Shown in pieces: positions 38,289-55,529 of a stretch of 64,000 bases of DNA. The translations under genes were made by a program, and so were the position numbers. The notes under the pieces are model-generated. The model searched no databases and was not told the origin of the DNA. It saw only the letters and a list, made by a program, of their open reading frames with translations. The DNA is from Vicugna vicugna (Eukaryota), in the NCBI GenBank assembly GCA_013265495.1, contig MU057887.1:4057668-4121667 (forward strand), in the 5' to 3' direction. The number at the start of each line of letters is the position of its first letter. Positions within the stretch are counted from its first letter, which is position 1.

Positions 38289-39089
38289 TCAGTGCAGGAT
38301 GCTGCGGAAGGCAGCCATGTGGCGCCGCACGCTGTCTGCAATCTGCTCAGCTGACCTGGCCCTGCTGTAATAGTCTGTGAAGAGGCCGTCAGGGCTAAGC
38401 AAATAGATGGCGATGGAGTGGTCCACGATGTAATCCTGGTCCTCGTCCTTGGGGCCAGCGCTGTAGTACACGCGGTAGCTGCGGCTGACCTCGGCAATCT
38501 GCTCAGCTGAGCCAGTCAGGCCCAGCAGCCTTGGGTGGAAGTCCTGCACGTAGCGGGCCATAGCGGCCACGTCATCCCGCTCAGGGTCCACAGTGATAAA
38601 GAGGGGCTGCACGGGGGGCAGGCCAGGCTCTGTCTCCAGCTGCCTCACCACCTGCACCAGCTTCTCCAGCTCATCTGGGCAGATGTCGGGGCAGTGAGTG
38701 AAGCCAAAGTACATTAGCACCCACTGGCCCCGGAAGTCGGCTTTGCAGCGAGCCTGGCCCCGGTGGTCCAGCAGGCTGAAGTCACCCTGGCCCACAGCAG
38801 CCTGACGCAGGGCCTCTGTCCGCTGTTGCTGCCGCCGCTGCTCCTTTTCTGCCCTTGCAGCCAGCCAGGCTCCACCTAGCCCAGCCCCAAACAAGGCTGT
38901 GATCAGCAGCCTAGTTCGTAGCCCAGGACCCTGGGGCTGGCCCTGCCTGCCAGCCTCCACAGGGCCCTGCCTTGACAGGAGCCGGCACCTCACATGTGGG
39001 GCCTTGCCTCCTGGGGTCCTGGGGAGGGCAGGAGGCTTGAGCTGAAAGAGCCTGTGCCAAGCCTTGGGTGCCCGAGCCAGCAGCAGCAT
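38289..39089 (-). CDS. SCO2: Cytochrome c oxidase copper chaperone SCO2, 266 aa, single coding exon
   Basis: Begins [18 protein letters not shown] (mitochondrial presequence) and has a TM segment, the [14 protein letters not shown]xxxC motif and the YIVDHS copper-ligand His. A splice acceptor lies 13 nt upstream of the ATG (exon starts 39102). Confidence 0.97.
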
Positions 39090-40139
39090 GGACCTGGTGC
39101 TCCTGGAAAAGAGCATAGGTTTTGGAGCCAGGAGGTGCCTCGGCCTCCTGGGTCATCCTCCATCATTCTGGGGAGACTCGCCACCATCTTAAGGACCAAC
39201 CCCAAACGGGCTCAGCTGGGCTCAGAAGTGCTTCACCTCTGAAACTCTGCACTCTGGCCTAGGTGTTATCAAATGTCCCTGCCTGTTCCTCTTGTCCTCC
39301 AGCCTGAGACCCTCATCCATCTCATCCCACCTGGCCCCTGCCCGCGGTCCTGCTGCTGGCTGGCCTGCTCCTGCAGCTCTAACCAGCCTAGCCCAGCGCT
39401 GCCTGTATCTGAGTGAGCTGACTGAAAGCATTCCAAGTGCATGCTTGCTGGGATTCCTGAGCATATTAATCTGTGTGCAATAAACTCCCATTTCTTGACA
39501 GGAAGTGGGTGAGTCTCTGGCTTCAATCCCCAAAGACTGACTCCGACCCTTTTGCAGCCTTTCTCTGAGGACGGCTCCAACCATGGAGCTTTGGTTCCCT
39601 CCCCAGGCTCAGCCGAAACCCACCGTCACCCACACCCAGTCTGCAGTTACCTCCTGATGCCGCTCCGCCGCCCCTTCCACCCTGAACCTTTCTGGCTGGT
39701 GGTCACCTGGAAGGGAAACAAGGTTTCCACTTGTCTGGAGCCTACCTTGTCCACAGCCGGGTTTCCGACAGCAGCTCTGGGCTGGCGGCCCACGCTCTGC
39801 TGTTGCTTCGGTGACCTCCGACCCTTTCTCAGGGTCCGCTGGAGGTTTGCTAGTTGGAGGTCTTAGGACTCCGCCTTACCCGCTCCACTGCTGCTGGAAG
39901 GGCCTTCTCGAAGGCTACTAAATGTCCGGTCTCTGCCCGGTCCAAAGGTTCCTGGGCTTGGGCTCTGGGCTGGATGACCTTGGACACGTCCCTTAGTCTG
40001 TCTACATCAGCTTCCTCCTTTGCAAAATGCGCTGTAAGCGGTGCATGAGATGGGCCTGCAAGCGAAGGCAGCCTGTGGACGTTTCCAGGGCCCCTCTCCT
40101 CCAGAAGGCCCCTCTTCTCAAGGAGCCCCCTCCAGAGCG

Positions 40140-40560
40140 CCCTCCCGGAACGCGCCGCGCGGGCTGGGCTTCCAGGTCCTCCGGGCGCCGGCGTCGATGC
40201 CGCGTGCCTGTGGATGAGACCCAGGAAGCAGAGCTTGGCGCCCGCCCTGCTCGGTCCTTGGGCGTATGCGTCAACGGCGTCGCGCTCGCGCAGACGAGCG
40301 TGGAGCCAGCAGGCGCCGGGCCGTGCGCATGCGCCAAAGGTGCAGGACCCCGCCAGAAGTCACGTGTCGGAGGGCGGTGCGAGGAAGCCCCGCCCATCCT
40401 CGGCGGCCACGCCTCGCCCGGCGCTGTCTCCACTCGCCCGCGGTTTCCACCTTCTCGCTCCCGGCCCCCGTGGCGCCGGGCACCCGCACCAATGAACGCC
40501 TCTCGGGGTTAGTTGCCGCGTGTCAGCCAGCTCGCGGGCGCGGGGGGCTGGGGGTGAAAA
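40140..40560 (-). promoter_or_regulatory. SCO2 CpG-island promoter
   Basis: Perfect NRF1 motif TGCGCATGCGC at 40324-40334, E-box GTCACGTG at 40359-40366, GC box ~40387-40394 and CCAAT at 40489-40493. Confidence 0.7.
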
Positions 40561-40620
40561 GCTGGGCTCAGGAAGGGAGGGGCATGGGCTACTGGACGGA
40601 CGGACGTCTCTGGGCGTAGG

Positions 40621-43209
40621 GCTGAGCCAGAGCGGGTGCCCCTCTACCAGTCCCCTCACCGAGCCTGGTGACGGGTGACTGGGTCCGCAGGCCCGGGGGC
40701 CTCCGCACAGCAGCGCCTCCTCCACTCCAGGGAGTGGCCTACACTGGGGTTGTCCTTGGCGGTCAGAGCAACCGCCCCGCGCCAACCTGAGGAGACACGG
40801 CTCAGCGTAGACCCGCCCAGGATCTTGCGTGTCGTCAGAATCCAGTCCTTGATGCATCTTTGGTTGCCAGTTCCCGTGGAGTGAGGGGATCTCAGAAGGC
40901 TTGGGAGGGGACGGGAGAGACCTGAAGCAGGCAGTGTGCTTGACTTAAGCGGTGGAGGTCAGGAAAGCCTTGTATCTGGCCCGGGCGGGAGGGTTTCCCC
41001 AGACCAGATCAGCCTTGCTCAGATAAAGCTGAAGAAGGAGGAATGCCAGCACGGAGTCCAGTCCCAGCAGAGGCAGGGTGAGACAGGGCTGCTGAGAGGA
41101 CTAAAAGGTTCGTGGGGACCAGGCTGCCCAAGTTATAAAGGGGAGTTTGGGGCCACCTGAGATCCACACCATCAGAGAGGACACAACCACACGGCGACTC
41201 CTACGGAGAGGCCACACAGGCTCCAGCAGGCACTGGTGCTTGTCCGCTCCCACGCTGTGCCTGAATAGGGACGACTGCGGTTTCCCTGAACTTCCTGTCT
41301 ACCACCAGAGCAGACAGGCTGGCTGTCGCCTTCTCACTGAGGATGGGGGCTGTGGGGGAGGCTACGGGTCTGGAGATGATGGAGATCCTGGAGCTTCCCG
41401 GGAGATGTGGGGGGATGCTGAATCTCCGGTCTGTCATGAGGGGTCAGGGATCCAGAGCATGGGGTAAAGTTCCCTATGTGATGGATGACAGGTTGTGCAT
41501 CAGTCAGGTCACCCTCTTGAGTGGGTGATCAGGTATCCTGTGATGAGGATACACTGACCCTGGGTTTGGGTCAAATCACCAGTGATTGTGTGTGTTTGCA
41601 GGTTGGGGTCTTTAACATGCAGGAGGTGGAGTCTGGGGTGAGGTCACCTGTGATGAGTGGCAGGCTGTCGACGGTGTCTGTTACATCTCTTGCTTCATAC
41701 AGGATTCCATCTGCAAGAACCAGCTTCCTGCTCTGACCCACAATACAGCAGCTACCTGCCCCGGCAGCCCTTGCATCTGGCCAGCCCCCCCCCACCCCGC
41801 ATCAGGGCTGTTGGTGACCTTCAGTGGCCTCTGATCAGAAACCTTATCACTGACCCCGACTGAAAACTCATCAGCAACCTTGACAAAATGTTCAAAATCA
41901 TGACCAGTGACTTAGAAATGATTCTGGTAAGTCCTCACTAATGACTCATCCAGAATATTGATCAATGTCCTGTGGCTCATTAATGATTAATCAGTTAATC
42001 AGTATTTTACAAAGTCCCTATTAATGACTTCAATCAAATTTCCATTGATGATCTTGACCAAAGTCCTAGGGCCCATGAATAACTGGTCAATATCCTCACT
42101 AATGATCTTCTAGAGAGTCTGGCCAATGTATCCATCAATAACCCAGGTCAATGACCCATCAGTGGCCCACCTGTACCTGCTCTGGGCTCCAGGTGACACT
42201 GAATCCAGAAATATTCAAGGTGCTCCCCATGTGCCCCAGGCCATGTCCACTGATCATTGGTACACGCTGGACAGGGATGCTGAGTACACCTGCATAGTCA
42301 CCTCCCCACCCCCACATTTCTCCTTACCTTCCCTGGTTAGAACTTCAACTGGAGTTAAGTATTTACTAAGCAGTGTAGTAGTGGGTATTCAACTGGAGAG
42401 GAAACTGAAAACAGATCGTCCTGGTTTGGGATGCGGGTGTCAGTGGGGGAGGAGGCGAGTACCTCTCGCTTGAGGCATAAGTCTGGGGGTGGAGGGGTAG
42501 CAGTACCGGCTCTTCCTTTGGGAGTCCTGCCTGCGGAATCTAGGAGGGAGAGCTGGAAGACTTGTTCCTGTTCTTGGGGGTTGATGGGAAGGGAGATTCA
42601 GGTTCTGCCCTGGGGTCCTGTTTGGGCCAGGCTTGAATTGGGCTGCTGACCTCTTTGAGGTCAGAGTTTCTGGTCTTGAGAGGAGGCATCTTTTAACCTT
42701 GCAGCCACAGGCAGGCAGGGCAGGTGCCATGACTCTGCCTCAGGGCACGTTTGTCCCCGAGCTTTTGGCACCAGGCCACTCCAGCTGCTGCCCAGACTTG
42801 CCCAGGACGGGTCAGCGCTGCAGTCTCCACCAGATCCATGCCTCGCAGGCGGATGGCAAGATCATGGCCCCTAGGCGTGGGTACAGTGGTGTAGGCAGCA
42901 CAAGGGGGGGGGGCGTTCCCCCTGCAGTGGGTTATTCCGAGTGGCAGTGGCAGTGGTGGGGCGCTATGGCGTCGCCGGGGGCAGGCAGTCTCTGGGCCTG
43001 ACCTTTGGGTCGGAGTCAGGGGCGGCCAGCCGTCGCCACGCATGGATTTGCGCGCCCTGTGCCTTCCAGGACAGCACTCACGAAACCCCTGACTTCAGTA
43101 CGGCAGTTGCTTGGGCTCCGGCTCCCTCCCTGGGAGAGTTCAGCAGATGCAACTGGGGCAGGTGGGGACAGGCGTCCGCAACTACTCCGGGCTGCGACAC
43201 ACTTGGAAC
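40621..43209 (-). pseudogene. TYMP: Thymidine phosphorylase unitary pseudogene
   Basis: Collinear exon remnants between ODF3B and SCO2. Ex2 ~43209-43044 (PEPKQLP...RGFVSAV..AQGAQI; deletions, donor GT>AT). Ex3 42870-42698 (AIRLRGMDLVET...QQLEW...APALPACGCK; frameshifts). Ex4 42266-42177 (VPMISGHGLGHMGSTL...SPEQ). Ex5 41776-41648 ([31 protein letters not shown]; 1-nt deletion). Ex6 41349-~41233 (ILSEK...LSALVVD.KF). Ex7 40786-40660 (VEEALLC; frameshifts). Ex8 start ~40643-40621. Confidence 0.93.
41800..42170. repeat. Degenerate ~24-25 bp tandem repeat in TYMP intron 4
   Basis: Recurring units such as gtcctcactaatgactcatccagaa, gtccctattaatgacttcaatcaaa, tttccattgatgatcttgaccaaa and atcctcactaatgatcttctagaga. 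Confidence 0.55.
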
Positions 43210-43375
43210 CTGTCGCCGCCCTGTGTCCGTGTCACTGCAGCCAGGCTCACTTGTCCCGACCCGGTTCCCGTTTTTCTCTCGTGTAGTCCCCTCAGTCCAG
43301 TGTCTGTGTCGCCCGTGTGCATGTCTCCGTGTCTGGCTCCCACATCTCGGTCTCACAACTGACCCCGGTCCGTAC

Positions 43376-43620
43376 CTGTCCTGCACAGATGCCCTAGCCC
43401 GTCTTTCGAATCCTAGCGGGTTCCTCCTTGTCTTGCCGGCGGCCACAGCGTGGGAGCGGCGGGATGGCGCCTCCGGCCAGAGCCACGGAGGGGCGGGGCC
43501 TCACGGCCAGGCGGGGCTCTGGGCCAATCACCGCCTCGGAGGGGCGGGTATCCTGACCAATCGCGAGGGCCCGCTTGCTGCCTCTCTTGCCCGCCCGCCG
43601 CGCCGCAAGCAGAGGGAAAG
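43376..43620 (-). promoter_or_regulatory. Retained TYMP promoter / non-coding exon 1 region (CpG-rich)
   Basis: Paired GC boxes and CCAAT boxes (~43490-43562) and an intact minus-strand donor CAG|GTACGG at 43376/43375. Confidence 0.5.
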
Positions 43621-43686: not shown

Positions 43687-45626
<1,940 letters not shown>

Positions 45627-45678
45627 CTAGACCCCATTGTGTCCAGGTCCCGCCTCCTGGGAGCCAGACTGCACCACC

Positions 45679-45695
45679 NNNNNNNNNNNNNNNNN
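45679..45695. other. Assembly gap (17 N)
   Basis: Run of N in GC-rich sequence upstream of ODF3B. Confidence 1.
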
Positions 45696-45809
45696 CCTCC
45701 CCGCCCTGCCTCCCCTCCTTGGAGTCCGCACTGGCAGACATCCTGCAGGCTAGGCCATGGACCAGAACTCCGTCCTCACCGTTTCACGGGCTTCACTAGA
45801 CCCATTCCA

Positions 45810-54470: not shown

Positions 54471-55529
54471 ACTGTCGTGCTGCTGAGATTCACCCACACT
54501 CTTGCTGTATCTGTATTTTCACTGTTTATAGCAGCAAATACCAGCCAGTGAGATGAGGCACAGTGGGGTGTCACAAATGAATTACAGATGTGCCTTGAGC
54601 TAGTAATGGACATCTGTTTTCTGCGGAGGTAAATTATAATCTAGTTTTTCAATAGTTACTTAAAAGTTTACTCGGTTTAGTTTACTCTTGAACAATTTCT
54701 GAGGCTCCTCCGTAAACTCAAGCCATTATTTTGGAAGAAGTGGTGCCTAGCACCCACCCCCAGAGGGCGCTCTGTACACGCCACGCCCCCCAAGACTTCC
54801 CTACTGTTTGCTCAGTTTGCCTAATTATTAGCCAGGATTTGTTTATCATTGGTGAACTTTTCTGTAACATTCATCAAGGATGAAATTTAGGTTTTTAAAA
54901 AAATTTACTTTGTTCTTTTTGTCACAAATTTAAGAACAGATACATATGGTTTGTATGACTTCTACCTTCAACGCTACCACTGCTGTCATGGGAGGCACCC
55001 TCCTCTTCTCCATCTGCTCTGTACTCAGTGCTTCTAAATAAAATATCATTAATTTTATTTGTTTTCTCAACTGTTACTTCTTGATTACTTGTTTATTTAT
55101 TACATATTGGTTGTTGATGTTAAGCATTAGCCTATTGATTATTGATGGGATTTCTCAGTTGTTGACCGCGAGGGTAGACGTTCCTTCCCTCTTCAGGTGG
55201 CTTAGCTGAGAACAGACCCGCCCGGACCGAGCGTGTCTCATCAAGACCTTGGCTGACGTCGGTGTCCAGTGCCAGGACTGCCACATGCAGCCTTGGTTCT
55301 TGGTAGGCCCTCTCCTGGGGGCTGTTCCTGGGCCTGGACGTACTTTGACTCATTTCTGGGTACTTGGAGAAGCTAGCTATGCCTAGTCCCTCTTTGGGGA
55401 GCCTGCAGATGTGTGATGTGACGCGTGCTTCTGGTCACCCTGGCTGTTGAGCCCTTACATGGTGTCTTGAGAACATCTACGACTGGCCTGTGCTGCAGAA
55501 GGATGATAGTTTGGGGACTGTGTGTTAAT

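Follow-up and report, generated by a model that had tools for sequence, protein, structure and literature searches.

Between ODF3B and SCO2 on the minus strand of the vicuña genome lies the position at which thymidine phosphorylase (TYMP) would be expected from the human gene order ODF3B–TYMP–SCO2, which we take as the synteny reference. The locus raises the question of whether a gene able to encode the enzyme is still present there. According to the part of PMC7671337 available to us, loss of TYMP leads to MNGIE, a fatal mitochondrial disease in people, so that animals without the gene are natural knockouts. We addressed the question in a stretch of 64,000 nucleotides of a Vicugna vicugna contig (the window), to which all coordinates below refer unless stated otherwise.

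The interval contains six remnants of TYMP coding exons, all colinear on the minus strand and spaced by intron-sized gaps of 172–429 nt, with AG/GT at most borders; their position is conserved, with ODF3B upstream and SCO2 downstream. When the intact rhinoceros TYMP (P0015, 493 aa) was compared with the window by tblastn, seven colinear minus-strand matches were obtained that cover residues 1–304 (E 1.7e-13 to 7e-4), and a frameshift-aware protein-to-DNA alignment of the same protein extended the remnants to residues 1–313. Bat TYMP (P0010) produced the same pattern of matches by tblastn. The intact TYMPs of human (1UOU, 2J0F and 2WK5) and rhinoceros are orthologous to the remnants, and the exon-5 piece shares 84% identity with its rhinoceros counterpart; this piece also matched human TYMP structures with E 2.5e-12 (phmmer against solved structures). 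Used as the query in a homologue search, it retrieved the intact TYMP of rhinoceros, horse and bats, together with cetacean TYMP models annotated as 'low quality' or hypothetical. The exon-6 remnant returned zero matches in the same kind of search, and a Pfam scan of single remnant open reading frames (ORFs) assigned no family to any of the eight ORFs of the TYMP region, because the pieces are too short and too damaged.

The flanking genes are in a different state. The SCO2 protein of the window has its closest named match in Camelus ferus (98%), followed by hippopotamus (92%); by tblastn, 271 aa can be compared with the Camelus ferus protein at 97.8% identity, falling to 91–94% in less constrained pieces. 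These values place the animal among the camelids, and probably outside Camelus. The ODF3B frames match bovine CIMAP1B in structure 8otz (E 6e-36). The original prediction, made from the letters of the window, had placed TYMP remnants in order between ODF3B and SCO2 and had described the neighbours as intact; the order holds for six exons, by both tblastn and alignment, and the state of the neighbours holds for SCO2, with its uninterrupted ORF, and for ODF3B, with its open exons. An assembly gap, visible as a run of N at about 45660–45700 and as X in the ORF translations, adjoins ODF3B on its upstream side. Searches for Rfam families and tandem repeats across 38–46 kb returned nothing of note. 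The features of the locus are collected in Table 1.

Table 1. Features of the ODF3B–TYMP–SCO2 interval in window coordinates, with tblastn matches to rhinoceros TYMP (P0015) given by residue range.
Feature	Coordinates	Strand	Evidence or remark
ODF3B (CIMAP1B), six open exon-like frames, stop at about 43690	43690..45111	-	SHIPPO repeats; frames read
Likely old non-coding TYMP first exon (inferred), ends at GT	43375..43473	-	gene model P0030 only
First coding exon remnant	43044..43198	-	tblastn and frameshift-aware alignment
tblastn match, aa 1-70	43198..43052	-	E 7e-4
Exon 3 remnant, acceptor AG and donor GT retained	42698..42870	-	tblastn and alignment
tblastn match, aa 79-96 and 98-143 (two frames)	42860..42807 and 42805..42695	-	E 2e-10
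Exon 4 remnant	42177..42266	-	tblastn and alignment
tblastn match, aa 142-177	42266..42171	-	E 8e-7
Exon 5 remnant, 129 nt, best conserved piece	41648..41776	-	tblastn, structure match, alignment
tblastn match, aa 185-221	41750..41640	-	E 1.7e-13
Exon 6 remnant	41216..41349	-	tblastn and alignment
tblastn match, aa 218-250	41353..41255	-	E 3e-4
Exon 7 remnant, donor GT at 40659-40658	40660..40786	-	tblastn and alignment
tblastn match, aa 264-304	40793..40683	-	E 2e-4
Possible exon 8 start (PLWLS), 17 nt past exon-7 donor	40620..40642	-	4-residue LWLS match, no statistical support
G+C-rich stretch at expected exons 8-10, no detectable TYMP similarity	39950..40619	-	
SCO2 coding exon, intact 275-aa ORF	38289..39116	-	SCO1-SenC domain, E 3e-48

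The remnants were examined for lesions by three-frame translation, after which each lesion was located by coordinate; indel sizes were inferred from the protein-to-DNA alignment, and exon borders were set where similarity stops. In total, the remnants carry at least 10 frameshifting indels. In the first coding exon, which presumably corresponds to human exon 2, the start position is occupied by GTC (43198–43196) instead of ATG, and the surrounding stop-to-stop frame (43016..43231) contains no Met. Three gaps follow: one of 22 nt, which deletes GPPDPPP and shifts the frame; one of net 41 nt (14 codons), which deletes ELIRLKRDGGRLSE; and one of 5 nt, which precedes QGAQI. The dinucleotide AT is found at 43043–43042, where the donor GT would be expected from the point at which similarity ends. 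Exon 3 carries indels of -1, -2, -7 and net -20 nt, the last of which deletes STGGVGD from STGGVGD(K), which we take to be the phosphate-binding motif of TYMP. Exon 4 has lost four codons (DKLE/KLES) through an in-frame 12-nt gap, has gained one codon at its start, and shows substitutions within the otherwise invariant SGRGLGHTGGTL stretch. A 1-nt deletion affects the VGCC codons of exon 5, and exon 6 has a 3-nt gap (one codon) and a strongly diverged latter half. Exon 7 combines a 9-nt in-frame gap (LGR) with a 1-nt deletion ahead of VEEAL and another shift ahead of VTRLG, and is thereby spread over three reading frames.

Most of this damage had been anticipated. The missing start codon, the frameshifts and motif loss in exon 3, the KLES deletion in exon 4, the 129-nt exon 5 with its single-nucleotide deletion and the frameshifts of exon 7 were all recovered as originally described, and an exon-2 deletion put at about 15 codons was refined to 14. 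The 22-nt and 5-nt gaps in exon 2 are additional to the lesions listed there. Regarding the claim that the exon-2 donor had changed to AT, the dinucleotide itself is present as predicted, whereas its role as a former donor is inferred from the end of similarity.

Comparison with living genes indicates the extent of the loss. Every segment absent from the window's TYMP is present in all nine intact TYMPs aligned, a marsupial sequence included, and the STGGVGDK motif is invariant in the same nine. A live TYMP has an ATG, one reading frame, STGGVGDK and a C-terminal domain; the window is without all four, lacking the start codon, a single frame of ~480 aa, the motif and the part corresponding to aa 314–493. 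We are therefore highly confident that the window's TYMP is the remnant of a dead camelid gene at its ancestral ODF3B–SCO2 site, unable to encode the enzyme. Since the exon–intron layout of the live gene is kept, with gaps of intron size and mostly AG/GT borders, the remnant classifies as a unitary pseudogene rather than as a processed one. The colinear remnants, their introns and the ODF3B and SCO2 flanks thus support the central claim with which the analysis began, that of a unitary TYMP pseudogene at the syntenic locus.

The 3′ third of the gene was considered separately. Within the 733 nt past exon 7, nothing traceable to residues 314–493 (the C-terminal ~181, including the PYNP_C domain) was detected. 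The frameshift-aware score of the C-terminal part was 78, compared with 80.6 ± 7.3 for shuffled proteins, 24 of 40 of which reached 78, and alignment to the opposite strand scored 84. Local alignments in the three frames were equalled by 43, 109 and 26 of 200 shuffles. A horse isoform (P0007) continues out of frame into intron 7, and its tail fared similarly, the real score being reached by 30, 128 and 89 of 200 shuffles in the three frames; its first six translated residues are the same as in the window, after which it diverges. In contrast, this DNA is strongly matched by the tail of the humpback whale model (P0002), whose real score was reached by none of 200 shuffles in any of the frames. 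The DNA past exon 7 is thus conserved among cetartiodactyls, though unrecognisable as TYMP. The putative collapsed intron 7 and exon-8 stub of the original prediction rest on a four-residue LWLS match, part of PLWLS at 40635..40620, and the humpback model has the same PLWLS arrangement past the exon-7 donor as the window. Matches to exons 8–10 that appear colinear by eye (RQLTPRGVH, PGARRW, ATPLTH and others) were rejected as chance resemblances in G+C-rich DNA. The stretch 39950..40619 is probably the promoter and 5′ region of SCO2. Within this G+C-rich stretch upstream of SCO2, short tandem repeats of 18 nt and 12 nt occur at 40089–40145.

To place the loss in time, the window was compared with the cetacean remnants represented by the fin whale (P0001), humpback whale (P0002) and Lipotes (P0006) models; the comparison works with translated frames, and the annotator had corrected the frames in two of these three models, which are labelled 'LOW QUALITY'. 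Like the window, the cetacean remnants have the 22-nt gap and the seven-codon loss of STGGVGD, and the same sequence past the exon-7 donor. At both deletions, the fin whale model can be aligned gap-free to out-of-frame ORFs of the window, with PHLP..HLL.SP..AQA.A extending over the 22-nt gap and LVP.A.GQTCPEAESWHLP.LPVAAR over the loss of the motif. In Lipotes, the same seven residues are absent relative to rhinoceros, and AWSQYLGDKYAL of the Lipotes model matches AWCQKLGDKRAL of the window. Since the whale remnants carry both the 22-nt gap and the STGGVGD deletion, these lesions predate the camelid–whale split, and the loss is old, as had been proposed from the window itself. The shared deletions make it likely that TYMP was already inactive when the camelid and whale lineages separated.

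Other lesions have a narrower distribution. Unlike the window, the whale models keep the 14 exon-2 codons, the exon-4 KLES codons (in Lipotes) and the G of the exon-5 VGCC codons, which implies that the window acquired its lesions at these places afterwards, within the camelid lineage. The 7-nt gap of the window is likewise absent from the whale models. Taken together, the two classes of lesion are consistent with a history in which TYMP would have died before the camelid–whale split and then decayed further along the camelid line.

Similarity to the whale models is also seen outside the coding exons. At about 43290–43330, within TYMP intron 1 on the minus strand, an out-of-frame ORF contains 13 consecutive residues, SQTRRHAHGRHRH, that are identical in the fin whale model. 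This 39-nt non-coding stretch, conserved across cetartiodactyls, is possibly regulatory. It bears on a reading that is compatible with a dead coding sequence, namely that the promoter and first exon of TYMP, or a transcribed remnant, have been retained in a new capacity, one candidate being that of an alternative 5′ exon or a regulatory region of SCO2. In addition to the identical translation of the intron-1 stretch in the window and the fin whale model, such reuse would be favoured by the Camelus ferus model P0030 ('SCO2 isoform 2-like', 391 aa), in which 43473..43375 is linked to the coding exon of SCO2. This upstream piece corresponds to aa 88–121 of P0030 (91% identity), and GT follows ...GGACAG at its end. 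However, P0030 was generated automatically and is a chimera, which further includes one exon of ODF3B and a segment at 55 kb; its pieces map to 43375–43473, 38292–39104, 44129–44269 and 55246–55353. The chimera is probably an annotation artefact, although it does hint at the idea that transcripts from the TYMP promoter could be spliced to SCO2.

Sequencing runs provided a further view of the region, through the share of 309 sampled words of 40500–43400 that each run contains. Six RNA runs from three studies contain 0.20–0.41 of the sampled words, which may reflect partial transcription of the pseudogene region and would be in keeping with reuse; however, DNA or unspliced precursors can occur in RNA libraries. 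Overall, we regard reuse of the 5′ end in some form as unlikely. The more specific proposal, in which the TYMP promoter and non-coding first exon owe their survival to a present role in driving or regulating SCO2, an essential downstream neighbour, appears slightly less probable still. Either could hold alongside the favoured reading of the locus as a unitary pseudogene.

A working copy elsewhere, duplicated or retrotransposed, or residing in an unassembled part of the genome, would leave the animal with TYMP activity irrespective of the state of this locus. The genome searched comprises 2.03 Gb in 12,405 contigs, and the copy search scores only the best candidates; the absence of another copy is accordingly not absolute, given the number of contigs in the assembly. 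With the intact rhinoceros protein as the query, 14 candidates were scored and one match was obtained at E <= 0.01. This sole match, G000:C1013:4099307-4099420, is the exon-5 remnant itself (window 41640–41753), so that the genome-wide check for an intact copy that accompanied the original prediction led, among the 14 scored candidates, back to this locus only. A search of the whole genome with Pfam PF00591 gave zero matches and missed even the remnants of the window, and is for that reason uninformative on TYMP copies. In the accessible part of the published study, species with the loss had been checked for functional duplicates and none was reported (PMC7671337). Considering the single match together with the published check, a second copy is very improbable.

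Least credible of all is the idea that the animal has an intact TYMP and that errors of sequencing or assembly account for the lesions, an idea for which the N run near about 45680 might be cited, but which would have to contend with more than 10 independent indels, the loss of a motif, the absence of the C-terminal third, open genes on both flanks, the repetition of two lesions in whale models, a printed account of camelid TYMP loss validated by reads or sister species in the portion of PMC7671337 at hand, and 14 DNA runs (of 24 runs listed) that contain 0.96–0.99 of the sampled words. These DNA runs represent seven studies and three organism codes, and five of the 14 carry no flag as a possible source.

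The pseudogene at this locus agrees with what has been published. In the sections of the paper available to us, Sharma and Hiller 2019 (PMC7671337) describe the loss of TYMP in six mammalian lineages, Cetartiodactyla among them, with lesions validated by reads or sister genomes, and with conserved gene order and the absence of duplicates checked. The loss is presented in their Figure 3 and Supplementary Figure 1, and the latter, as far as its content could be retrieved, shows the ruminants cow, bison, goat and Tibetan antelope, and also dolphin, killer, sperm and minke whale, Bactrian camel and alpaca. The suspicion voiced at the outset, that the loss might already have been reported, was therefore right, since two camelids are included. 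The window resembles this cetartiodactyl loss in gene, in clade and in kinds of lesion, namely deletions that shift the frame, altered splice sites and lost exons. Figure text recovered for the cetartiodactyls lists deletions of -22, -21, -42, -1 and -2 together with an AT splice site; the deletion sizes match those inferred from the window, with the qualification that the text order is scrambled and the correspondence is not row by row. Earlier still, the loss in cow had been described by Elsik et al. 2009, the first such report for a cetartiodactyl according to the portion of the PMC7671337 supplement at hand; cattle are cetartiodactyls like the vicuña, but ruminants. In our search of the literature on TYMP in camelids, no paper besides PMC7671337 was found. 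The loss of TYMP at this locus is thus already known, and we attach no new biological claim to it; the window adds a lesion-by-lesion account for another camelid genome and a check of two lesions common to whales.

How these animals handle thymidine was considered with reference to the same study, which proposes, in the part consulted, that UPP1 with a broader substrate range makes TYMP dispensable, and cites mouse data (PMC7671337). The idea put forward with the original prediction, of another enzyme taking over thymidine catabolism, corresponds to this published hypothesis. If the hypothesis applies to the vicuña, thymidine breakdown would pass to uridine phosphorylase, an expectation drawn from the literature. 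Comparison of the genome with TIGR01719 gave matches with open exons at two uridine phosphorylase loci, G000:C600:1622232-1626146 and G000:C12403:154560-179826, presumably UPP1 and UPP2. One further uridine phosphorylase match, resembling a first exon, lies on the small contig C6360.
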